64,000 nt of DNA from Mobula hypostoma (lineage: Eukaryota): contig NC_086108.1 of assembly GCF_963921235.1 (NCBI RefSeq), forward strand, positions 72,480,001 to 72,544,000, written 5' to 3'. Each line of letters starts with the position of its first letter. Within the stretch, counting starts at the first letter, position 1. The notes beneath the pieces are model-generated. The model was not told where the DNA came from, made no database searches, and was given only the letters and a program-made list of their open reading frames with translations. Shown here one piece after another: positions 11,191 to 60,200 of this stretch. The translations under genes were made by a program, and so were the position numbers.

Positions 11191-11836
11191 ACACATAAAA
11201 GTTGCTGGTGAACGCAGAGGCCAGGCAGCATCTATTGGAAGAGGTACATTCCATGTCCCATTCCCATTCTGATATGTCTATCCACGGCCTCCTCTACTGT
11301 AAAGATGAAGCCACACTCAGGTTGGAGGAACAACACCTTATATTCCGTCTGGGTAGCCTCCAACCTGATGGCATGAACATTGACTTCTCAAACTTCCGCT
11401 AATGCCCCACCTCCCCCTCGTACCCCATCCGTTATTTATTTTTATACACACATTCTATCTCTCTCTTTCCTTTTTCTCCCTCTGTCCCTCTCACTATAAC
11501 CCTTGCCCATCCTCTGGGCTTTTTCCCCCTCCCCTTTTTCTTTCTCCCTGGGCCTCCTGTCCCACTATCCTCTCATATCCCTTTTGCCAATCAACTGTCC
11601 AGCTCTTGGCTCCATCCCTCCCCCTCCTGTCTTCTCCTATCATTTTGGATCTCCCCCTCCCTCTCCCACTTTCAAATCTCTTACTAGCTGTTCTTTCAGT
11701 TAGTCCTGACGAAGGGTCTCGGCCCGAAGCGTCAACTGTACCTCTTCCTAGAGATGCTGCCTGGCCTGCTGCATTCACCAGCAACTTTGATGTGTGTTGC
11801 TTGAAATTCCAGCATTTGCAGATTTCCTCGTGTTTG
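11191..11836 (+). mobile_element. Penelope-like element, 5'-truncated, with short inverted arm
   Basis: TSD ctgttgtggtaac (11178-11190 / 11837-11849); GIY-YIG endonuclease C-terminus RLEEQHLIFRLGSLQPDGMNIDFSNFR*; 11191-11248 is an inverted copy of ~11737-11795. Confidence 0.92.
11701..11738 (+). ncRNA. Minimal hammerhead ribozyme motif in PLE repeat, degenerate (GAAA changed to GAAG)
   Basis: tagtc CTGACGA a gggt-ctcg-gccc GAAG cg TC aactg; homologous to the intact-core copy at 57108. Confidence 0.6.
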
Positions 11837-11919
11837 CTGTTGTGGTAACCTCTATTTCGAAAAAGGCACACTCGACAACTTCATGCCAAAGAAACAACTT
11901 TATCTCAAACGTCAAAACC

Positions 11920-38694: not shown

Positions 38695-38951
38695 GCTCTA
38701 GTAACATACTATGGTTTACTTTGTACATGGTACTGAAGGAAATTATAAAATTGTGAAGGATTTTTACCAGAATTTCCCATCCCATTGTCATAAATAACTT
38801 GTTGAAACAGCTTCTTTACTTCTGACATATTTGCGACAGCAGAACAGACCTGCTCTGAAGAAGTCTCTACCTTTTGGCTGGTTTAGTGTTGTGTGTCATA
38901 TCTGTTCACTGTGTGATGCTACTTAACTAAGCAAAAAAAAATAGGTCAAAC

Positions 38952-39008
38952 TTGTGTATATAATATTTCAATAATACTTGAGTAATCTTGTACGTGTGTT
39001 TATATATG
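38952..39008 (+). mobile_element. 5' fragment of a Gypsy-like LTR, homologous to the LTR at 43868
   Basis: ttgtgtatataatatttcaataatacttgagtaatctt aligns ungapped to ttgtgtactttatgtttcaacaatatttgtgtcatctt (8 mismatches in 38 nt by hand count). Confidence 0.6.
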
Positions 39009-39605
39009 TGTAACACTTGGCTTGATCAACTCACGTTCGTCTAAGGGAAGCTGCCGTCTGCCCGCCAAACTGTGTCTCACGTTTGCGTAGATGCTGTGTA
39101 ATGCACCCTGGTACAAACCCACAATGTAAAACATCAGACAATACACAATATGCGATTAAATGATTACACTTTATAACTCTTATTTGGTGATGTGGTTAGT
39201 AGAAAAGCAAGATAGTAAAGAACAAGGCGCCACTGTAGTTAATTTTAATTAGTCTGTGCACAAGTAAATTCATTGGAGCTCACGGAACCAGGTCTCCTTT
39301 CCACCAATCAATCTTCTCTGAACTTGGTTGACCCTCGGCTGGGACCACCCCTGGTGGCCTACCAGAGCGCTCGGAGTGCGTCCTCCCTCTTCTCCTCGAC
39401 GAAAAGCCCGTGCACTAACTCCGGTTCCCACAGCTACAAGATAGAATAACATGACTTCCATTGGTTAGTTCCCCGTTATCTGTAGTTATAACCCAAACAT
39501 CGCAGCTACAAGAAACATTACCTCATCAGTTAACATTACAGAGAAGCCATTTCATTATAACACTACAGAGAAGCCATTGTATTATTAGCAGTTAACATTA
39601 CTGAG
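39009..39605 (-). mobile_element. Solo-LTR-like element of a second family
   Basis: Minus strand ends ...GTGTTACA; CCAAT box and short tandem 'aacattacagagaagccatt' units at the other end; CpG-rich relative to flanks. Confidence 0.6.
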
Positions 39606-39609
39606 AACC

Positions 39610-40028
39610 CCCCCCCCCCACATATGTATGTGGTAACAAATTCCACAAATTCACCACCCTCTGGCTAAAGACATTTCTCTGCATCTCTGTTTTAAATAGA
39701 CACCCCTCTATCCTGAGGCTGTGCCCTCTTGTCCTCGACTCTCCCACCATGGGAAACATCCTTTCCACATCTACTCTATCTAGGCCTTTCAATGTTCAAA
39801 AGGTTTCAATGAAATTCCTCCCTTATCCTTCTAAATTCCAGCGAGTACAGACCCAGAGCCATCAAACATTCCTCATATGATAACCCTTTAATTCCTGGAA
39901 TCATTCTTGTGAACCTTCTCTGAACCCTCTCCAATGCCTGCACATCTTTTCTTCTAAGGAGCCCAAAATTGTTCACAATACTCAAGGTGAGGTCTCACCA
40001 GTGCTTTATAAAGCCTCAGCATCACATC
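39610..40028 (-). mobile_element. CR1 internal/3' fragment
   Basis: MKGLDRVDVERMFPMVGESRTRGHSLRIEG. Confidence 0.88.
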
Positions 40029-40107
40029 TATCTATATATAATATATATATAATTATTATTATAAATAATATATAATAAATGTGTGTATGTAGATATATAT
40101 ATATATA
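40029..40107. repeat. TA/TAA-rich degenerate microsatellite
   Basis: tatatataatatatatataattattattataaataatatatataataaat...atatatatatatata. Confidence 0.85.
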
Positions 40108-41344
40108 AAATCAATTTTTCTCACCCCTTATGGGTGGAGTGTATGTGTATTTTTCCCTCAATCTCAGGTCCTCCATCAGAGGCCTGGGAGCTTGTGGATT
40201 CAGCACAGTATCCTTGCTGTTCCTAGTAGTGCACTCTTCTGGACCGAGATCCTGGATGTTGTTCCCAGGATTTGTTGGAGCCACTCACCCAGTCCAGGTG
40301 TCACAGCTCCAAGTGCTCCTATCACCACTGGGGTTACTCTGGCTTTAACCTTCCACATCCTTTCTATCTGCTCTTTCAAGCCCTGGTATTTCTCCAGCTT
40401 CTCATATTCTTCCTTCCTGATGTTACTGTCATTCAGGATTGCCACATCTATTACTATTGCTTTCTTCTGTTCCTTGTCCAGTATTACTATGTCAGGTTGC
40501 TTATCAGCCGGTATTTAGAAGTCCCACAGGATCTTAGCTCTGTCATTATCCACTACCTACTCGGGAGTTTTCCCATTTGGACTTGGGAGTGTCCAGTCCA
40601 TACTCAGCCCAAATGTTCCTGTGCACAAATCCTGAAACTTGGTTATGCCGTTCAGTGTGTGCTGTCCCTCCCTGCACTTTACACCCTGCTACTATGTGCA
40701 GGATGGTTTCAGCGGATTCCTTACACAGTCTGCATCTTGGGTCTTGTCTGGTGTGATCGACCCCTGCTTCTTTGGCTCTTGTGCTCAGCACCTGTTCTTG
40801 TGCAGCCATGAGCAGTGCCCCTGTGCTGTACCTCAGCCCTGCCATTTCCAGCAATTGGTAGGACTTTCTTACATCAGCCACCTCAGATATCTGGTGATGG
40901 TACATCCCGTGCAGTGGCTTATCCTGCCGTAGCCTCTGGTCCTCTGGCTCTGCTTCACCCACTTCCATTTCCATATCCCCTGCCTGCTGTCTGAGGTATT
41001 CTCCTAGCAGGTCATCCTTAGGGGCAATCTTCCTGACATGCTCATGGATGTTTTGCATTTCTTCCAGGACTGTGGCCTTGACACTTCCAAGTCCCCATCC
41101 TCCTATATTCTGGCTGGTGTCAGTTGTTCGGAAGAAATCCTCCATGTATTGTTAGTAATTTCCGGTTCTTGATGTCAGCAGCTTCCAATTTGTTCCTTGG
41201 CCAGCACACTATTGTGGCTGGGTACCTGATGACTGGTAGGGTGAATGTGTTGATGGCTCTGATTTTATTCTTCCCATTCAGCCGACCTTTTAGGTCCTGT
41301 CACACACTTTGGAGGTATTTGGATGTTGCAGCCTTCCTTGTGTC
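40108..41344 (-). mobile_element. R4-clade (Rex6/Dong-like) non-LTR retrotransposon, 5'-truncated
   Basis: CCHC knuckle CRLCKESAETILHIVAGC; RHNQV; restriction-like endonuclease KILWDF..QPDIVILDK..VIDVAI..EKLEKY..PVVIGALG; 3' end abuts the TA repeat. Confidence 0.9.
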
Positions 41345-41940
41345 TGACTGCAGTGGTTTTTGTAAGCAGCATATCTGTGAAAGATTCTGATATGTTCATC
41401 GGGTAGTTACTTGCAAAATGTGGCTTGGCTATAAGCCAGAAAAATTCAGGGCTTCAGTAAAGTTGCAAGCATTAGGATTTTGTGAATATAAACAACCAGA
41501 GCTCTGGTATAAAGAACTCTGCATGCACTAAAGTTCTTGCATGAACTTCAAGTGGGAGACAAAAAGCTGCTTGTCGAAGTAAATGCTAAGTCCAAAGCCC
41601 AGCAGGATGAATGGAAGGCCAAAAGGAATGGAGTCAATGGAGATATGAAAACAGAGGATTTGTCAGATGATGTTGCAGATGCAGAAACCAAGAGGAGAGA
41701 TCAGATTGTGAAGGAAACAATGGAAGGATTAATAAGACTACTCCAGTGAACTAAATGCAACTTCCTGAGATCAAGGTGCACAAACTAGAAAGAAGAAATA
41801 GGAGGGGGAAGATGGAGAAAAAGAATGTGAACTAGAAAGAAAAACTGTGAAAGAGAGAAGGAATGTGCAAAAGAAAAAGAAAGGCATGGAAGTAGGTGCA
41901 GAGAGAGAAAAGGAAAAGAAAGGTGACCAGAGGTGGAAGA
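41345..41940 (+). pseudogene. RBM25: Processed (intronless) RBM25 pseudogene fragment: RRM through RE/RD-rich region, with stops, frameshifts and internal deletions
   Basis: VFVSSISVKDSDMFIG*LLAKCGL / KLQALGFCEYKQPE / LHELQVGDKKLLVEVNAKSKAQQDEWKAK / ETKRRDQIVK / YSSELNA / EREKEKKGD match RBM25 as I recall it: VFVGNISEKASDMLIRQLLAKCGL, KLQAFGFCEYKEPE, LHDLQIGEKKLLVKVDAKTKAQLDEWKAK, ETKRRDQMIK, YSSELNA, EREKDKKRD. Confidence 0.92.
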
Positions 41941-41944
41941 ACTA

Positions 41945-42125
41945 AGAGTTAACTTCTACAACTACCACAGAGGAGGCCCCAGAACATGAGATTGTTTCAT
42001 CGCCACAAGTCTCACCTGCCAGGCAGAGTAACCCGTCCCCCCGTCAGGAAAGATGTTACCAACAAGAATAAGAAATCCTCCGCAGCAGTTAAATCTTTAG
42101 GCCTGAACAGGACAATTTAAATTTA
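41945..42125 (+). mobile_element. Gypsy-like LTR retrotransposon pol C-terminal tail and start of 3'UTR
   Basis: TTTTEEAPEHEIVSSPQVSPA...ERCY(P)TRIRNPPQQLNL* (stop 42098-42100), an RRYPxRxRxPP-type tail seen after Gypsy integrases. Confidence 0.75.
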
Positions 42126-43765
42126 CCATGGTGAGGACAATATGAGTGAGGTTGATGTTCTGGAGCATGTTGATATTAAGGGAGAGGAGGTGTTGGAGTT
42201 GTTAAAATACATTAGGACGGTTAAGTCCCCGGGGCCTGACGGAATATTCCCCAGGCTGCTCCACGAGGTGAGGGAAGAGATTGCTGAGCCTCTGGCTAGG
42301 ATCTTTATGTCCTCATTGTCCACGGGAATGGTACCGGAGGATTGGAGGGAGGCGAATGTTGTCCCCTTGTTCAAAAAAGGTAGTAGGGATAGTCTGGGTA
42401 ATTATAGACCAGTGAGCCTTACGTCTGTGGTGGGAAAGCTGTTGGAATAGATTCTTAGAGATAGGATCTATGGGCATTCAGAGAATTATGGTCTGATCAG
42501 TGACAGTCAGCATGGCTTTGTGAAGGGCAGATCGTGTTTAACAAGCCTGATAGAAAGAGGTGACCTTTGAGGAGGTGACCAGGCATATAGATGAGGGTAG
42601 TGCAGTGGATGTGATCTATATGGATTTTAGTAAGGCATTTGACAAGGTTCCACACGGTAGGCTTATTTAGAAGGCATGGGATCCAGGGAAGTTTGGCCAG
42701 GTGGATTCAGAATTGGCTTGCCTGCAGAAGGCAGAGGGTGGTGGTGGAGGGAGTACATTCAGATTGGAGGATTGTGACTAGTGGTGTCCCACAAGGATCT
42801 GTTCTGGGACCTCTACTTTTCGTGATTTTTATTAACGACCTGGATGTGGGGGTAGAAGGGTGGATTGGCAAGTTTTCAGATGACACAAAGGTTGATAGTG
42901 TTGTAGATAGTGTACAGGATTGTCAAAGATTGCAGAGAGACATTGGTAGGATGCAGAAATGGGCTGAGAAGTGGCAGATGAAGTTCAACCTTGAGAAGTG
43001 TGAGGTGGTACACTTTGGAAGGACAAACTCCAAGGCAGAGTACGAAGTAAATGGCAGGATATTTGGTAGTGTGGAGGAACAGAGGGATCTGGCGGTACAT
43101 GTCCACAGATCCCTGAAAGTTGCCTCACAGGTAGATAGGGTAATTAAGAAAGCTTATGGGGTGTTAGCTTTCATAAGTCCAGGAATAGAGTTTAAGAGCT
43201 GCGATGTAATGATGCAGCTCTATAAAACTCTGGTTAGGCCACACTTGGAGTACTGTGTCCAGTTCTGGTCGCCTCACTATAGGAAGGATGTGGAAGCATT
43301 GGAAAAGGTACAGAGGAGATTTACCAGGATGCTGCCTGGTTTAGAGAGTATGCATTATGATCAGAGATTAAGGGAGCTAGGGCTTTACTCTTTGGAGAGA
43401 AGGAGGATGAGAGGAGACATGATAGAGGTGTACAAGATGATAAGAGGAATAGATAGAGTGGATAGCCAGCGCCTCTTCCCCAGGGCACCACTGCTCAATA
43501 CAAGAGGACATGGCTTTAAGGTAAGGGGTGGGAAGTTCAAGGGGGATATTAGAGGAAGGATTTTTACTCGAGAGAGTGGTTGGTGCGTGGAATACACTGC
43601 CTGAGTCAGTGGTGGAGGCAGATACACTAGTGAAGTTTAAGAGACTACTAGACAGGTATATGGAGGAATTTAAGGTGGGGGCTTATATGGGAGGCAGGGT
43701 TTGATGGTCGGCACAACATTGTGGGCCGAAGGGCTGTACCGTGCTGTACTATTCTATGTTCTATG
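42126..43765 (+). mobile_element. CR1 LINE, 5'-truncated, the best preserved LINE in the window
   Basis: KSPGPDGIFPRLL; 321-aa ORF with SGVPQGSVLGPLLFVIFINDL and KFSDDTK; ctattctatgttctatg tail; a few stops and indels. Confidence 0.96.
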
Positions 43766-44107
43766 CTGTGGGTGTCTGTTTATAGTACCTGTATTATATA
43801 GTATACAGTGTATATAGTTGTGATGCGTTTGCTATTGAGTTGGAGTTTATAGCTAAGTATGGAGGAGTGTTGTGTACTTTATGTTTCAACAATATTTGTG
43901 TCATCTTATGTGTGTAGCATTTCTATTCATTTAAATAATTAATTTTGGGTTATATGTAAAAATACGTTAATTGTATACGTTATCATGCTACCAGGTGATA
44001 CATTGGCAGCTTGCTTAAAGTAAAGACCAAGTTTCATCCGCAATCTCAGACTCTCTTGTCTTCATTTGAATTAATTTACAGTAATGTTTTGAAGTTACAA
44101 AATGTAG
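43766..44107 (+). mobile_element. Gypsy-like 3'UTR remainder, polypurine tract and 3' LTR
   Basis: Purine tract ggaggag (43861-43867) directly followed by TGTTGTGTA (LTR start 43868); inferred continuation of the tail cut at 42125; LTR 3' terminus degraded. Confidence 0.7.
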
Positions 44108-44121
44108 AACTATTTTCAGAA

Positions 44122-44307
44122 CAAACAAGAGAAAATCTGCAGATGCTGGGAATCCAAGCAACACACACAAAATGCTGGAGGAACTCAGCAGGCCAGGCAG
44201 CATCTAAGGCAAAAAGTACAATTGAAGTCTCGGCTCCAAATGTCAAGTGTACTGTTTTCCATAGATGCTGCCTGGCCTGCTGAATTCCTCCGGCATTTTG
44301 TGTGTGT
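44122..44307. mobile_element. 186-bp PLE-derived fold-back insertion (two inverted terminal-repeat arms only)
   Basis: 14-bp TSD aactattttcagaa (44108-44121 / 44308-44321); arms acacacacaaaatgctggaggaactcagcaggccaggcagcatcta and tagatgctgcctggcctgctgaattcctccggcattttgtgtgtgt. Confidence 0.9.
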
Positions 44308-47679: not shown

Positions 47680-48858
47680 ATTGGCGCCCTGTCACACTCA
47701 TCTCATTTATAAGCAAATGCTTTGAGAGGTTGGGTTAAAGATTATATCTACAGCATGCTACCACCCACACTGGACCCTCCACAATTTGCCTACCAATGGA
47801 ACCAGTCTACTGATGGTGCCATGGCCACAGCACTGCACACCGTCCTCACTCACCTGGAGAAGAGGAATGCTGTTCCTGGACTACAGTTCAGTATTCAACT
47901 CCATAATTCCCTCCAGACTTGACAGGAAGCTCAGAGAACTTGGCCTGCACCCCACCTTGTGCAGATGGATCCTGGACTTTCTATCAGATTGCTGACAGGT
48001 GGGAAGGATGAGCACCCTCACCTCTGCCCCTCTGACCCTCAACACAGGTGCCCCCAGGGTTGTGTCCCTTTACACCCACAACAGTGCTGCCGCACACAGC
48101 TTCAATCTGCTGATCAAATGTGCAGATGACACGACATTGATTGGCCTTATTTCTAGCAGTGACGAGACAGCCTACAGAGGAGAGGTTAACACCCTCTCCC
48201 TCAAAGTCCAAAAAAACAAAAGAGCTGATCGTGGATTACAGGAGGAATGGAGACAGGCTTGCCCCAATCAACGTCAACGTGAATGCAGTTGAGAGGGTGA
48301 GTAGCTTCAAGTTCCTCGGTATACACATCACCAAAGATCTCACCTGGACTGTACACACCGGCTGTGGGGCAACAAAAAAAGCACAACAGCATCTCTTCCA
48401 CCTCAGGGGACTGAAGTTCTGCACGAGCCTCCAAATCCTCAAGACCTTCTGCAGGGGCACCATTGAGAGCAACCTGACTGGCTGTATCACTGCCTGGTAC
48501 GGGAACTGCACCAACTTTGGTCGCTGGGCACTGCAGAGTGGTACAAACAGCCCAGCATATCTGTGGACATGAACTTCCCTCCATTGAGGAGATTTATAGC
48601 AGCAGGTGCATAAAGAAGGCCTGGAAGATCATCAGGGACACCAGTCACCCAAACCATAAACTGTTTCAGCTGCTTCCATCTGGGAAACGGTACCGCAGCA
48701 TTAAAGCCAGGACCAACAGGCTACGGGACTGCTTCTTTCTACAAGCCATTAGACTTATAAATGCACATGCCTGTACATTGCGACGGAGTCATTACAGAAA
48801 GATTTTTACTCCCTCACATTTGTGGGACAGATGTAAGATTTAAATAAATTCACATTCA
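47680..48858 (+). mobile_element. Rex1/Babar LINE, RT to 3' end
   Basis: [67 protein letters not shown]. Confidence 0.92.
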
Positions 48859-48994: not shown

Positions 48995-49360
48995 AATGTT
49001 TATTTATTCATTTCTGTCTTCAGAGGTACAGCACAGAACAGGCTCATCCAGTACAACAATCTGCACCACTCTGCAAGCTACCTATTTAACACTAGTCTAA
49101 TCGCAGGACAATTTACGATGACCTATTTAACACTAGTCTAATCGCAGGACAATTTACGATGACCTATTTAACACTAGTCTAATCGCAGGACAATTTACGA
49201 TGACGAATTAACCAGCTAACCAGTAGGTCTTTGGACTGTGGAAGGAAGCCTGAGCACCTGGAGGAAACCCACACAGTCGCTGGGAGAATGTACGAACTCC
49301 TTACAATTGGACTTTGAACTTCAAGTTGTAATAGTGCTGCGCTAACATATACCACTCGTA
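48995..49360 (-). mobile_element. V-SINE containing a tandem triplication
   Basis: Reverse-complement V-domain 'tttggactgtggaaggaagcctgagcacctggaggaaacccacacagtcgctgggagaatgtacgaactcc'. Confidence 0.75.
49080..49204. repeat. Perfect 41-bp tandem repeat, 3 copies
   Basis: acctatttaacactagtctaatcgcaggacaatttacgatg starting at 49080, 49121 and 49162. Confidence 0.97.
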
Positions 49361-52300
49361 TTGGGCTGAAGTTGAATGAATCCAGGTGGTGCAGTGTAAT
49401 TTTAAGAATAATTTGTGCTGTCTTATCACTGAGAAAATTCTTCTCATCTTTTTAGGCACTATTTTCAGTGCAAAGTCTCCCTAGGTAATATCAATACTCG
49501 GGCAAAAGGCAGAATTTTATCTCCAATGAGCTATTTCTGAAAAAAAACCAGTAGCTCCTGTGTACTCTCAGAACAAACAGCTCTTGTTAATCCCATTTCC
49601 AATAAAACCAATCTAATTTATGATTCAATGCCCAAATCCCATTCCTTATATTCACTGAGAGCTGTGATTTCCTGCACCTGCTAATACCTTCAAGAGGAGA
49701 AGTTTGAAAACTCATGAGGGAACACCAAGTAATTCCATTTTCAAAGACGCTTTAGGACACAGCTCATGATGCTGTATTCATCAAATTTACTGTTCATTCC
49801 TTTCATTCACTGCAGCAAATCTGATAGTGCAGTATTAACTTTGAAGTGTATTTGGGATAGAAAATTGTTCTCAGTTGCGTGCACTAGATGCATATATGGA
49901 GAAGCATATATGCACATTTTCTTCTGTGTCCAAAATTCAGGTCCAGGTATCAGAAATGGACTATAGCATGCAGCAATTACAGCATCTGGTTTAGCATGTG
50001 GCCAAGCACAAACTTCCAGTAACACAGTCTTGTTTAATTTGCCTCTATTAGAGTGATTTTTGGGTGTAGCACATTTACATTTAGCAAGTGACTTTGGCTA
50101 CCAGTCTTCACATCTGAATATGTATTGTGGATCTAGTTTGGAGAACAGCTCTGAACTATGGGTTCCTAAAAGCCATGAATTCCAGACCAGACAGTGCTGA
50201 TTAAAATTTATTTGCATGCGTGAGAATCAGGAGGTATGAAGTCTGTGTGTAGTTTTAAAGAAAGCATTGTAGATACATTGTAAATATGGAACTGTCTTTT
50301 GATGTTTAGCACATAAAATATTGAGCCGCACATTGGGCCTGCAGACCTTTTGAATGAAAACGTCTCTGTATAATGCCTGCTGTACCTTGTTTTGTTGAAT
50401 AAAGAAGCTGCTTTGTATCTACCAGTACTTTTTTCCAATGACTTCATTTATGCAACAACAGTCTCTTGCCTTTATTTGGGCTTTAATGTGGGGCAAAGAG
50501 ATGTCCATCTATTCTGTATGTGGTTATCTGATGAGTATATCCAGCACCACCATCTTCACCCATTAGATATTCCTGTTAATTAACAATATTTGTGTCATAA
50601 AATATGGTCACTACATTTTGCAATGTTAATTTAAGGTTATACTGAACAATTTGATACAGTGTAGTTCAAGCAAATAATTTCATATATACTCTATGTAGTG
50701 GGAGGATGAAATGAAAAACATTTAATTCGAGACTCCTTTTTAAATGAGAGATTAGCTGTTGGGAACATCACTTTCCTCAAAAATGGTTCAGATGCCTTTT
50801 ACAGTTAGCTGTGTTCCAGGAATGAAATGTGATTTGAGGGTGGGTTATGAAGGTGACTGAATTTTCCAGTAATACTATTTATGAAACGCACAGGGTTCCC
50901 AAAATTGGGCTGCCTAATCCCATTTACCCAGACTAAGGCACGATTTGTTGGTTTCTATTTTCAATCACAAGTCACAGCTGGTATTTATAGCATGACATGT
51001 TACTCAGCAAACTGTGTTGTGTTGTGGATGGGGGGGTGGTTGCAACACACATAGATGCATGCGGGGTAATCAGGTGATGAATTTAATCCTTGTGCAGTGC
51101 TGCTTTGAGCTCTGCTAGGGCTGTGATGATCCCACTAATGCCACTATGTCAACCGTAGTGTATAATTTGCTGGAAGAGCCCAGTCCAACCCTGTTCCCCA
51201 CCCCCCACACCACCACCACTAGGTATGCAGTTTAAAGAGATCCTCAATGATTTGAAATTAGAAAATAAACTGCTGGAGGAACCTGCTGACATGAACTTTC
51301 TCTTAGACGCTGACTATGTTCTGCCAGAGCTACCAACACAAGGGCACTTGTCATGCTCCAGCAAAGATTTGGATACTGTCCTAGGTCTAGATATGAACTA
51401 GGGTGTATCTTGTTGCATCCAGTACAACGTAGACACCGCATGGCTACAACAGTTGGAGGAAGAGGTAGAGGATCAAGGGAAGAGGTGGCAATTTTCATGC
51501 GTAAGAGGCTTTTCATCTGCACTAAGGAACATCAGAAACAACGGCAAGGCTCAGCGAACGAAACAGGCATTGGTCACATGGTGCAAAACATTCAAGCTTG
51601 TGCTGATAGGTGGCGAGAAGCGTCCATGTCCTACAAAAGATCAATGACTGTGTCAAACATTTCCATACTGTAGCCAAAAGCCCCACCAGATGCGTGCTTG
51701 GGAGAGAGAAGTCAGCTTGGAGTTGGGACAGGGTACAGATGGTTAGGTGGAAGGGTAGGGCTGAAATCTTGCTTAGAATTTGATATTGAGGCCAGCTTTT
51801 GTTCTATAGTGTGGGATGGTTGACGTTGTAAACATTGGAAGCAAAGTGTTTTTGATTAGAGTGCACAATGAGGCAGAGGAGGTAAATTACTTTGAAATGG
51901 CATGCAGCAAAAAAAAATCTTAAGATTTTTGCATGAAGCGATGAACAGCAGAGGTTATGCTGCCTGTACTTGCCAAAGTGATAGGGAGGTGGAAACAGGA
52001 ATCTTGTGTCTTACCAGCAGAATGTTTGACTAGTGTGGATTAGTTATGCTTTGCCATTCAGTTTTTGTTTACCACTATTGTCCGATTTCTTTACAAAGAT
52101 TTTAACTGATTAAAAATACTGAAATATATTTTGTCCACATTCATTTTCAGAGTTAAATGCTGTGTTTGAGCTATGGATGGTGCAGTGGCTGCAGGCTCTA
52201 TTTCTGTTTTCACCATTTGGAGGATGAGGCTTAGCACTACGAATGTCCTTTGGGAATCTCTCACTTGGATGCCTGGTAAATGGGATTCCTGCCACATTAC

Positions 52301-54450: not shown

Positions 54451-56164
54451 ATCAAAATTATTGTTATTTGTCATAAAGTAGAAATTCCATTATTTAAAAA
54501 TATTAATAAAATATATTACTGTGCAACAATGACGCTAGTGATGTTTCTGATAACTTGATAACTATTTGGCTCTTCTGTATTGTCTTCAATCTTCCTAACA
54601 ACATCTGATCCACTTAAAATAATATTCCTCACATTATTTTTCTATGGTTAAAAAATGAAGTTAGTTGCATTGCCTTTTTGTATGATGACCTGTACTGCAT
54701 TATTCACACCTGTTGGGCACGTTGAGATAGTGTCTAATTACAGATGCGTGACTTGAAAAATTTAGCCAGGATTTACAGAAATTTGCAGATGTGACCATCA
54801 CATTTTGTACATTTGTCTTTAGACCATAAGACATATGCCAGATTTTGTGATAATACTTCAAGAAATGTAGTTTGAGAAATCAGGGGCAGTGTATGCTTTA
54901 AATCAGCACAGAATTGACAAAAAAAAGACACACTTTTTATACTTGTTCGGACATGGGGTTCAAAATGCAGATTGTACTATTTTATTGTGGGATAACTATC
55001 TAGAGTAAATTTGTTCATCTGCTGAATTTAAAATGTAGAGATCATTTAAGAGAATAAATCACCAAATTATTACAAGTTGGTGTGTAGAGCACTGTCTGCT
55101 TTGTAATAAAATTTTTACTTGGAAGCTAATTGTTAAATATAGTCTGATGCTCACCATATTAACTCTGAAATTCACGATTTTGCTTCTGAGTTGTAAATGC
55201 AGATGATGTGTTAATGCCTGGAAACAGTTGAACATGCTGTGCTAGACTTGAAAGGAACAGTGAATGCATGAACACAAGTTCTACAATATTCTGCATGGCC
55301 TGCGGAGCAGTTCACTGAGAAACAGCTGCAGTTAGGTGGTCTGTAACTTTAAAAACTTGCACCTCATTAAGACTCTCCCTCAGGAGTGCCCCATCTCTGT
55401 TCCACTCAAAGGCAATCCTAAAACTGCCAAAAGAAATCAAACTTCACTCCCACCAACCCGACTGTGACATCAACTGCCTCCATTTACACTGCGAAGGCAA
55501 GATGGGAGTGAATATATTCCTGGAAATTCAAGGCGTATGCAAAATAGGCATGAGTTGGCAATGGTAAATTAGGAAAATACATTAAAAAATGACTAACACT
55601 TAAAGAGCAAACACATATTAAATAATGTAAATCCCTATAAAAGGTAAATTGGTCTATCTATGGCTTAAAGTGAGACCTCTTATTTTTTTTTACGCCTATT
55701 CATCACATTTGCACCCTTTGATAGTAAAATAGAAAGTTGCAGAATTTTTTAAATGCTGAAAGACTGAAATTTGCCAGAGATCAAAGGGACCTATGTGCCC
55801 TTGTGTAAATTTAACTTTCAGATACAAGAAATATGGAAGGTGGATGCTGGGTTGAGCTTTATCACAAGAGAAGTGGAGGAGAATGGAATTGTCTTATAGT
55901 TGAGCTCTGGTGAGACTGATCTGGAATACTGTGTACAGGTGCGATCCTGCAGTCCACGTCAAGATAGGAGGAGAGCAGATGAATGTTACAAATCTGTGTG
56001 CTGAGAAAACACTGAATACTGAAGGTTTCTTAACTTGTATATAGAGTAATGTGGCATATTTGTGTTTTTTTTAATTAGACAATCTCTTTTTTTCCTTTAT
56101 GTCATCATTCTCACCAAACATAAAAACCACATAACCTTGTCTAAAAAAGGTTAGTGGGATTATT

Positions 56165-57202
56165 AAAAACGCAAACAGGAGGAAATCTGCAGATGCTGGA
56201 ATTTCAAGCAACACACATAAAAGTTGCTGGAGAACACAGCAAGCCAGGCAGCATCTCCAGGAAGAGGTACAGTTGACGTTTTGGGCCGAGACCATTCGTT
56301 AGGACTAACTGAAAGAAGAGCTAGTAAGAGATTTGAAAGGGGGAGGGGGAGATCCAAAATGATAAGAGAAGACAGGAGGGGGAGGGATGAAGCCAAGAGC
56401 TGGACAGTTGATTGGCAAAAGGGACATGAGAGGATCATGGGATGGGAGGCGTAGGGAGAAAAAAAGGGGGAGAGGGGAAGCCCAGAGGTTGGGCAAGGAG
56501 TACAGTGAGAGGGACAGAGGGAGAAAAAGAGAGAGAGAAAAAAATAATAATAGTAAGTAAATAACGGATGGGGTACGAAGGGGAGGTGGGGCATGAACGG
56601 AAGACATATAGCCAGAGAAAGCAGGATCTCCCAGTGGCCACACATTTTAATTCCACATCCCATTTCCATTCTGATATGTCTATCCACGGCCTCCTCTACT
56701 GTCAAGATGAAGCCACACTCAGGTTGGAGGAACAACACCTTATATTCCGTCTGGGTAGCCTCCAACCTGATGGCATGAACATTGACTTCTCAAACTTTCG
56801 CGCTATTGCCCCACCTCCCCTTCATACCCCATCCGTTATTTATCTATCTATTTATTTATTATATATTTTTTCTCTCTCTGTTTTTCTCCCTCTGTCCCTC
56901 TCACTATACTCCTTGCTCATCCTCTGGGATTTCCCCCTTCCCCTTTCTTTCTCCTTAGGCCTTCCGTCCCATGATCCTTTCATATCCCTTTTGCCAATCA
57001 ACTTTCCAGCTCTTGGCTTCATCCCTTCCCCTCCTGTCTTCTCCTATCATTTTGGATCTCCTCCTCCCCCTCCCACTTTCAAATCTCTTACTATCTCTTC
57101 CTTCAGTTAGTCCTGACGAAGGGTCTCAGCCCGAAACGTCGACTGTACCTCCTCCTAGAGATGCTGCCTGGCCTGCTGCGTTCACTAGCAACTTTTATAT
57201 GC
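56165..57202 (+). mobile_element. Penelope-like element insertion with long inverted terminal repeats
   Basis: 15-bp TSD gttagtgggattatt (56150-56164 / 57203-57217); 56165-~56595 is an inverted copy of the repeat at ~56805-57202; GIY-YIG C-terminus DLPVATHFNS...RLEEQHLIFRLGSLQPDGMNIDFSNF between the arms. Confidence 0.95.
57108..57145 (+). ncRNA. Minimal type I hammerhead ribozyme (intact core) in PLE terminal repeat
   Basis: Stem I tagtc/gactg; CUGACGA (57113-57119); extra A; stem II gggu-cuca-gccc; GAAA (57133-57136); palindromic ACGU in place of stem III; GUC triplet ending at 57140. Confidence 0.8.
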
Positions 57203-60200
57203 GTTAGTGGGATTATTGTGTGTTTTAAAGTGTGATGGTAGCTGAGATTAATCATTGACTTTTGTGCGAGATTCTTTTGAAATCCAGAATCTTTGAAAGG
57301 ATTAACGATGATTGGTAAGATGATCCCTGCCAGTTCTGTTGTACGTCCTTACTTTGGAAGTTGTGTGGTAATCAGTGGGTAGGTAGAGTCTTCCTGCTTC
57401 TGTGGTCCTGACTGATACAAATAACTCCCAACATGGATGGAAATTCATCGTGCAGAACCACACCATATTGAGCTCATTTCAGCACGTTGACCTGGCAACA
57501 CACCATCATGTTGAATCACCACAACTGGTATTGAGCCCGATATTTTGGCCAGCAACATTCTTCTTCTTTGCTTGCAATGTCACTGTGGCATTATCACACA
57601 CTGCAGATTGCCAGGGGAAATAATGGATATGGAAAATAGGATGACTCCGCAAAGAAAATATATGCAAAATAGCAACAGAAGAACTAATGTGTGTTCAAGG
57701 AATGCAACTGAGTGACTTATTACATGACCTATCACTGGAAAAGATTTTGACCAGGACTATGATGTAATTCAAGAGCCTTTCAGTAAACTATTAATTCAGT
57801 AACTATATTAGAAACAAAATCTTTTACATTCAGCATTCTGTTAATGTGTTTCTGTCGACAGCTTGGAAGTATTTTCTTTCTGTCTCCAATGCATAATTAA
57901 AAGAGTCATAAAACTGTATGAGAAAGGTTGGTATAATCACAATAAAATCATAAAATGGGAAGAAAATAAAGTTCCACTGTGAACTCTCTCCCTGGTTTTA
58001 AGATCCCTTAGGAACATAAAATGAAATGTATCCAGTCCATGATATTCAGGTAGAGGACAGGCAGCAGCAGTCTTGTACATAATGATTTGAAACATGCCAT
58101 TTACAGCTGTCTACTTTGCACTTCTAATTGAATAAAAGCATTTGAGTCTGATGGATGACACTGAAGATAGAATCTGTCAAGCATCTGCTGTCTTGCATTC
58201 CCAGTACAGACAAGCACAGCCCAGTTCTGCAGTTAAATACACAGCTATTTAAGGCGAGAAGATACTTGTGGAATTTGAACTGGTTGCTGCCCTTCGTGTT
58301 TCGGATGACTTGGTTGGTCCTTAGAAGGACAAAGAGAGGATTCTTGCCAGGGATAGGGGGTACTATTCAGGTCTATCAATTGGTGCATCTCTATAATTCA
58401 TCTCTATAATCAATGAAATATTCTGCTATTCAGTTGACGGTGGCCAAAATGGACTTGGCTCTGGGTGGTGTTTGTATTACCCTTTATAAATTATTAGCTA
58501 TTCCTGTAGCACTTTTGTGTTCATGTGTGTTATTGGAATAAGATCCTAATGTGCGAGATCAGTTTTCCTGGAGGTGTCTTGCTTTTATCTCGAGTGTTAC
58601 TATAAATCAGCTTTTGACAGCCTGTCTAGTAATGGCAGACATTAGCTAAGAAGTTAAATTTGGAATCAAGATATATAAAAATAATTTACTAAATTCTGAA
58701 AGGTATTAATAAGACTGCTTGTGGCATGGTGGCCTTTTAAATATACTTCATAAGGTTTCATATCATAATATGATACTGTGTTATGATAAAAATGTTAATC
58801 CTTCAGGAAGTGGGTCAATGACATGATCAATAAACTGTCCTTCATCTCATCAGCCATGTTTGAATTCAGACCTGAGCAATCTGTTCTCTATTGATTGTGA
58901 ATCAGGCATTTCAGCATATAATTCAATCTATTTTCTAATGAATGAATGCAAGTATAAATTTGTGTATGTTTCACAAGCTGAACAAACTGGAAAATCATGA
59001 CGATAACTGGTGTGGGAAATGTAAGTGCCCAACTACGGAATAGAAATAGAACCATAACACACAGGTTGATTACCCATCCTGTCTGAACTTGGTCTTGGAA
59101 AATGAGAGATGAATCTATTATCCACAAGTTTTTAGAAATGATTTTAAACTTATGATTACTTACCCACTCACCAAGGAAACTGCTATTTTTTATACTTCAT
59201 TAAAATGTCTGCCAGTTCACCTCTTCATGTTCTCTGTTTCAGAGGGATAATCCAAACCTCTTTCCCAGCCTCATCTCATAACTTGTGTCCCTCTTCCCCT
59301 GCCGTGTCCTGGTAAGCCTTCTCATACATCGCTCCACCTGTGGCTCCCAGAATCAGCCAGTTACACTCCAGTGGACCCTAACAACTGACCTATAAATTTC
59401 TAGCATGATGTCTTTAATTTTGTTTTCCCACGTTACTCAAAGTAGGTAATCAATTTTATTTTGTAATAACCTTATCAATTCCTCTGTGAAATTCACCGAA
59501 GTCTTTTTACTTTGTGAGAGGTTAGAGAGAAATTGCAGAAATCTCTGTGGAAATGTTTGCTTTCTTGTTCACTACTGGTGAAATTCCTGAAGCCTGGAAA
59601 AAAATCTCATGTTGTTTAAGAAGGGTAGCAAGGACGAGCCAGGAATCTTCGGGTCGATCAGCCTTTGAGTAATGTCATGAAGAACCTTAGCAGTGATGCG
59701 GACTGCAATAATTGGCCTCTGGTAGCATGATCCTCTTTCTATTAGTCCAGCTGTCTCAGCTTGGACCATCATCCCCCAGAAGTTATTGGGAAATAATTTG
59801 CGTGGGTGAACTGCATTGGTTCAAGATAGATCTAGTTGTCAGGTGGCTTGCTTTGTCACTTCAGTGAGCGAATTAGAGTCAGGTGCTTTGTATCAGATAT
59901 GAACCAACTGTGGGCAAAGAGGCGATAGTCGATATTCTCAAAGGACCAAAGCGGCTTAGAGATGACCTTTATTTAACCCCACCAGGGACAAATATATTGA
60001 ACTAATTTCCTCACATCTCTTTGACAATTTGGACTCTCAATATCAGAGCTACTTGTCCAGTAGCGTGATCGGCCCCCACTACCCTTGCAGTGTGGGCTTT
60101 AAAAGGCTTAATGCTTTGTATGTGGTTCAGTAAATGTCTCATTAATCAAATGAATCACCAGATCGTTTACTTTTAATGTTTTCCAGCTGCAAATTTTTTT

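Follow-up and report, generated by a model that had tools for sequence, protein, structure and literature searches.

Organization of the locus

The window – the whole 64-kb stretch of DNA analysed here – is repeat-rich vertebrate DNA in which no tRNA genes were found. Between 38950 and 44109 it holds a fragment of RBM25 coding sequence that leads into the likely 3' end of an LTR retrotransposon, together with a number of elements inserted later. The features, in order along the window, are:

38950..39008, + strand: remnant of a 5' LTR head that lacks the terminal TG and likely pairs with the 3' LTR
39009..39622, − strand: solo LTR from a different family, inserted later; length 614 nt, TG...CA ends, with a TATG duplication (4 bp) at 39005-39008 and 39623-39626
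39627..40028, − strand: fragment of a CR1-type LINE without its 3' end; about 400 nt, 71-77% identity to three other copies in the window
40030..41344, − strand: 5'-truncated non-LTR element; ORFs at 40546-41151 and 40200-40514, zf-RVT match at E 8e-4 (below cut-off)
41346..41813, + strand: RBM25 coding piece from spliced mRNA; contains most of the RRM together with the acidic/basic region that follows it, exon joins at 41415/41416, 41469/41470 and 41641/41642
41814..41945, + strand: purine-rich, Arg/Glu-like tract; 75-100% purine in 20-nt bins, weak tblastn match to RE tracts (E 0.004)
41946..42100, + strand: Pro/Ser/Thr-rich tail; two frames, RxRxPP-like motif at its end, stop at 42098-42100
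42101..42130, + strand: first part of a 3' untranslated region, placed by its position between stop and CR1
42131..43765, + strand: younger CR1 LINE, 5'-truncated, with an intact 3' tail; RVT_1 match (E 3e-13) in a 328-aa ORF
43766..43867, + strand: remainder of the 3' untranslated region, with a purine tract (43855-43867) at its end
43868..44109, + strand: 3' LTR; TG start, about 240 nt, AT-rich, 3' end blurred with no clear CA

Elsewhere in the window, a tandem array with a period of 41 nt (about three near-identical copies) occupies 49080-49214, and a young repeat is present in two copies (11248-11848 and 56160-57205) that are 89-97% identical. The second of these contains a 215-nt inverted arrangement, 90% complementary and 304 nt apart. 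Repeat sequence at 48141-48569 gives a weak Pfam match to ALKBH8_N (E 3e-4, just under the cut-off), a domain model that probably also matches the 3' portion of one of the LINE families.

A decayed and intronless fragment of RBM25

In a protein search with the 73-residue translation of 41525-41743, the best match was an RBM25-like protein from Heptranchias, a sevengill shark (79% identity, E 1.6e-25), and on this ground we take the host to be a cartilaginous fish. Matches were obtained for 16 of the 50 candidates: all carry the RRM Pfam domain, and those with names are RBM25 or RRM-domain proteins. Read in place, 108 of 148 residues are identical to shark RBM25 in four blocks over 41347-41813, and the identification of an RBM25 fragment, made previously from the letters of the window (hereafter the sequence-only reading), is thus borne out. 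The piece is disabled, with three stops and three frameshifts within 41346-41813. Since a second shark-like RBM25 ortholog is identical to the same shark reference at 148 of 154 residues, the loss seen in the RBM25 piece is attributable to decay and not to distance between orthologs.

As the reference for introns we used a genomic rbm25 ortholog (contig L001, MDSQ01119326.1; the one confirmed among 509 pattern matches), which is of bony-fish type and is not the host's own gene. Positions 1-2000 of this contig are a vertebrate rbm25 fragment with six exons that is present as host DNA in a metagenome collection. Its introns in the RBM25 region are GT-AG introns of 373, 157, 209 and 104 nt. When four L001 exons were aligned singly they abutted, at 41346-41415, 41416-41469, 41470-41641 and ~41642-41813: the first three introns (373, 157 and 209 nt in L001) are missing from the RBM25 piece at the exact exon junctions. 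The sequence-only reading had called the fragment intronless and had proposed an alignment for lost introns as the means of confirming this; checked against the ortholog, the claim holds. Because it crosses three intron positions of the ortholog without introns, the RBM25 piece is spliced cDNA. Both the 5' and the 3' border of the third exon are read-through points in many of 43 vertebrate proteins, and a shark gene model (P0003) ends abruptly at the fourth border.

The purine-rich tract and the likely retrotransposon tail

No credible match to the next L001 exon was found after 41813, the best being 28 of 39 nt in low-complexity sequence. One RBM25 exon is absent at 41813/41814: the parent reading is left at the end of an exon and is followed by the Arg/Glu tract. 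A gene model from carp (P0016) makes a similar join. The jump coincides with the end of an exon and the carp model joins similarly, so that capture of an exon-skipped message is possible at 41813; loss of sequence between purine runs at a later time is just as possible. The tract at 41814-41945 is likely to be the decayed RE region of RBM25, entered after the missing exon, on the grounds of its composition and its weak match to RE tracts. The border between RBM25 and the tail falls somewhere inside the low-complexity sequence from 41814 to ~41920 and cannot be placed exactly. The extent of 41345-41940 given previously for the RBM25 fragment is therefore clear as far as 41813, but from there to ~41920 it consists of low-complexity, Arg/Glu-like sequence.

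Other aspects of the earlier description of this end were upheld. The RBM25 match does stop within coding sequence, in front of the purine-rich bins, and it lacks a poly(A) tail, a 3' UTR of its own and the PWI domain: within 41340-42140 there is neither an A-run of six or more nor an AATAAA or ATTAAA signal, and tblastn gave no match to the PWI region.

The tail at 41946-42100 is likely the C-terminus of a Gypsy pol protein, ends of this kind being a feature of pol proteins of fish Gypsy elements. A protein search with the tail confirmed none of seven candidates, neither an atlas (no usable match) nor Pfam yielded a match, and a 19-mer taken from it had no match in viral contigs. The 3' untranslated region amounts to about 130 nt in total and is split by the younger CR1; two matches to a 21-mer from this region in prokaryote genomes were rejected as chance, each being 24-26 nt long and situated in a gene of a bacterium or archaeon. 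The region ends in the purine tract at 43855-43867 (11 of 13 purines), which is directly followed by TG at 43868 and is likely the polypurine tract. A polypurine tract followed by an LTR that begins with TG is common to all LTR classes. The succession of tail, 3' untranslated region, purine tract and LTR is thus present as the sequence-only reading described it, while the names Gypsy, R4 and polypurine tract are given by anatomy and not by a database match. The carrier is likely of the Gypsy (Ty3/Gypsy) class, on the strength of the tail motif, the reverse transcriptase, RNase H and integrase domains being absent here.

LTR pieces, later insertions and a probable deletion

On the 5' side of the locus, 38952-38997 aligns with the head of the 3' LTR (43870-43915) at 35 of 46 identical sites (76%), without gaps and on the same strand; the match begins at base 3 of the LTR, and it stops because the solo LTR begins at 39009. 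The piece scores 40, compared with a maximum of 33 in 1000 shuffles, and under lenient scoring it is the top of 3188 window tiles (score 24; best unrelated tile 17). With strict scoring and the whole LTR as target, however, the piece (40) is closely approached by an unrelated tile (37). The match is only 46 nt long and lies in AT-rich sequence. A 5' LTR fragment beginning at 38952, as proposed previously, is thus supported by its match to the LTR head, but the piece covers only ~38950-39008. The stretch at 39000-39099 was also considered as a 5' LTR piece of a different LTR family and was rejected: 398 of 500 shuffles were as good against the 3' LTR, and the stretch is solo LTR. A 17-nt match at window position 50582 was discarded as chance.

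None of AATAAA, ATTAAA or TATAA occurs in the 3' LTR. Nor is a target duplication of the LTR pair evident, since the sequence flanking the 5' remnant has no 4-mer in common with that at the 3' LTR end; the ends of the pair are eroded, with a SINE at the 3' end, and at such decay an absent duplication is uninformative. The SINE-like insert (44122-44307) is palindromic and is flanked by a 14-bp target duplication. Its arms (44161-44225 and 44243-44307) are 91% complementary, and related sequences are found at several places in the window.

The later inserts named in the sequence-only reading – the solo LTR at 39009-39622, a CR1, an R4-like element and another CR1 – were all recovered. With the solo LTR removed, the 5' LTR remnant adjoins the CR1 fragment at 39627-40028. 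The missing part of that fragment was sought to the left of the solo LTR, where the continuation of the other CR1 copies found no match. The element at 40030-41344, which is probably R4/Rex6-like, cuts off the RBM25 piece on its 5' side. The CR1 at 42131-43765 is flanked by a 5-nt near-duplication (four of five identical).

The simplest account of this arrangement is likely a single deletion with one end within the 5' LTR and the other within the CR1 upstream. Such a deletion would have taken the primer binding site (PBS) together with any gag and protease, as well as the 5' junction of the hybrid and the distal side of the R4-like insertion. No reverse transcriptase, RNase H or integrase of an LTR element was found among 57 other ORFs of the window, and the upstream interior has probably been deleted. 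The 5' junction was described previously as obliterated, and so it is: RBM25 is cut by the element at 40030-41344, and the probable deletion lies upstream.

Age of the RBM25 piece and of the LTR pair

If the hybrid was inserted ready-made, then the RBM25 piece and the LTR pair are expected to show decay of similar size. The RBM25 piece differs at 27% of amino acids, versus 4% between two shark-like orthologs; in simulations on the codons of the RBM25 piece, 27% less the background of 4% corresponds to ~10-14% neutral base change. The divergence of the LTR pair is 14% per copy (95% range 7-27%). The two values are similar in size and, within a wide interval, suggest a single insertion of a ready-made hybrid. 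The same agreement would also be expected, however, had a retrocopy entered the element shortly after the insertion of the element itself.

These data bear also on the relation between the two LTR pieces. The hybrid may be the member of a family while the sequence at 38950-39008 is either an AT-rich match that arose by chance or a separate LTR brought to its position by deletion. The brevity of the match, the loss of the terminal TG and the lack of a target duplication are all compatible with this, and the deletion could have been of any length; yet the ungapped, same-strand match starts at LTR base 3 and ranks first among the window tiles, and its divergence agrees with the decay of RBM25. 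We regard an unrelated 5' piece as very improbable.

Origin of the hybrid

LTR elements are able to generate partial retrocopies without poly(A) by double template switching guided by microsimilarity (Tan et al. 2016, PMC5131818). Such retrocopies are often 3'-truncated, lack L1 hallmarks, replace part of internal ORFs and can be retroposed again (PMC5131818). Set against the criteria of Tan et al., the host part of the present locus derives from spliced mRNA (three introns of the ortholog L001 are absent), and it is a partial copy with neither poly(A) nor L1 hallmarks. As to LTR flanking on both sides, the 3' flank is complete by its anatomy and the 5' flank is the 46-nt match to the LTR head, which lies beyond the inserts and the probable deletion.

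Under a capture mechanism, the reverse transcriptase of the element would have switched onto a co-packaged RBM25 message and then back, with the switch placed at the purine-rich tract, and the hybrid would have been mobilized in trans by intact relatives, as a non-autonomous element. The order of events at the locus would then be as follows. The hybrid inserted, and an R4-like element inserted into its RBM25 part; a CR1 inserted at the tail of the R4-like element, and the deletion took place; the solo LTR, the second CR1 and the SINE would have been the last to insert.

A different route to the same arrangement begins with a LINE-made processed pseudogene of RBM25, which inserted into an existing LTR element and was joined to the pol tail by a later deletion of its 3' half and poly(A). 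The locus has a history in which this might be accommodated: it bears at least one large deletion, as we infer, and five later insertions; the RBM25 exon missing at 41813 implies that internal loss is possible; and both of the junctions that would decide the matter are either lost or of low complexity. A LINE-type 3' poly(A) with a target duplication was not found at the locus, but a later deletion could have removed both. The route demands, however, that the pseudogene inserted in the sense orientation and just before the end of pol, and that a second deletion of more than 1 kb followed. We consider it unlikely.

The number of copies bears on whether a captured hybrid went on to be amplified. 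A second copy of the hybrid was not found in the 64-kb window, and no protein joining RBM25 to the tail was present among the 16 protein-search matches or among the 43 representative proteins. All 43 representatives are ordinary RBM25 or single RBM25 exons, and none matches the tail. A search for short proteins with the RBM25 piece did not confirm its one candidate, and a PDB search with the first RBM25 block (stop read as X) gave no matches. Part of 41340-42120 is contained in 17 of 20 listed sequencing runs (seven studies), a count that is not a measure of copies or of expression. Among the listed runs, organism A (0.24-0.65) and organism B (0.24) alone reach shares of at least 0.2 of this region, and no RNA run is among the listed runs that contain it. 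The lack of a second copy in the window and of a chimeric protein, together with an anatomy that fits, is as expected of a true capture by template switching that took place a single time, at this site, with no amplification afterwards; decayed copies would, however, be missing from protein sets in any case, and a capture of this solitary kind seems to us a very slim prospect.

The capture proposed in the sequence-only reading gains from these analyses a piece of coding sequence that is spliced, partial, in the sense orientation, free of LINE hallmarks and flanked by LTR pieces of one type, but on the 5' side that flank consists of a 46-nt match only. From the sequence of this one locus, LTR-mediated capture would be given slightly less than an even chance. 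Our preferred explanation is that the dead, intron-free RBM25 fragment and the likely Gypsy-type 3' end are one old copy of a hybrid that likely formed when an LTR element captured the RBM25 message and that was likely copied further, and this we hold to be quite probable.

Relation to known systems

Capture of this kind is a mechanism already known from animals (Tan et al. 2016) and from maize Bs1 and other plant cases (PMC13317346), of which the RBM25 locus is probably a fossil example. Like the animal retrocopies of Tan et al. 2016 (PMC5131818), the RBM25 copy is a partial, spliced host mRNA in the sense orientation, without poly(A) and with LTR-element sequence on its 3' side and probably on its 5' side. 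Those retrocopies replace part of an internal ORF, and two of them, CG17604_r and CG10212_r, were secondarily retroposed as non-autonomous elements (PMC5131818). One flank has been lost from older copies in zebrafish and chicken (PMC5131818), as at the RBM25 locus. Whereas the published cases are of recent origin, with few insertion sites each (PMC5131818), the RBM25 copy is old and dead and resides in a cartilaginous fish.

In maize Bs1, too, the interior of an LTR element holds exonic pieces of host genes, and all copies have common switch points (PMC5131818, PMC13317346). Bs1 has drawn on three donor genes, exists in 1-5 copies and has a translated hybrid product (PMC5131818, PMC13317346), whereas the RBM25 locus has one donor and no open frame. 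The human FAM8A1 retrocopy resembles it in being a piece of vertebrate mRNA with remnants of an LTR element and no L1 hallmarks, but its carrier is an endogenous retrovirus (PMC5131818), whereas that of RBM25 is likely of Gypsy type. With LINE-made processed pseudogenes the locus shares an intronless and disabled copy of a housekeeping gene; it differs from them in that the RBM25 3' end lies inside the coding sequence, without a 3' UTR, and adjoins LTR-element sequence. Literature searches found no RBM25-LTR hybrid, and a recent preprint on batoid genomics has no 'RBM' in its main text.

A more far-reaching proposal is that a non-autonomous, Gypsy-type family of cartilaginous fish took up, a single time, an RBM25 message with a skipped exon and multiplied to thousands of copies with the help of its cargo, and this we put forward as doubtful. 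The help might have come from a fusion in which the RNA-binding RRM and the Arg/Glu tract followed Gag, or from host-like sequence that blunted silencing by small RNAs, a suggestion we hold just as loosely. If the proposal is true, then no captured mRNA would be known to have spread further in any vertebrate, and the amplified cargo might give rise to small RNAs directed at the parent splicing factor. If the family is large, then captured splicing-factor hybrids can become major repeats, versus the few insertion sites of the animal cases described in that study (PMC5131818); the family would provide a dated series of copies for testing selection on the cargo in master elements, and it would caution annotators of ray and shark genomes against spurious RBM25-like genes.
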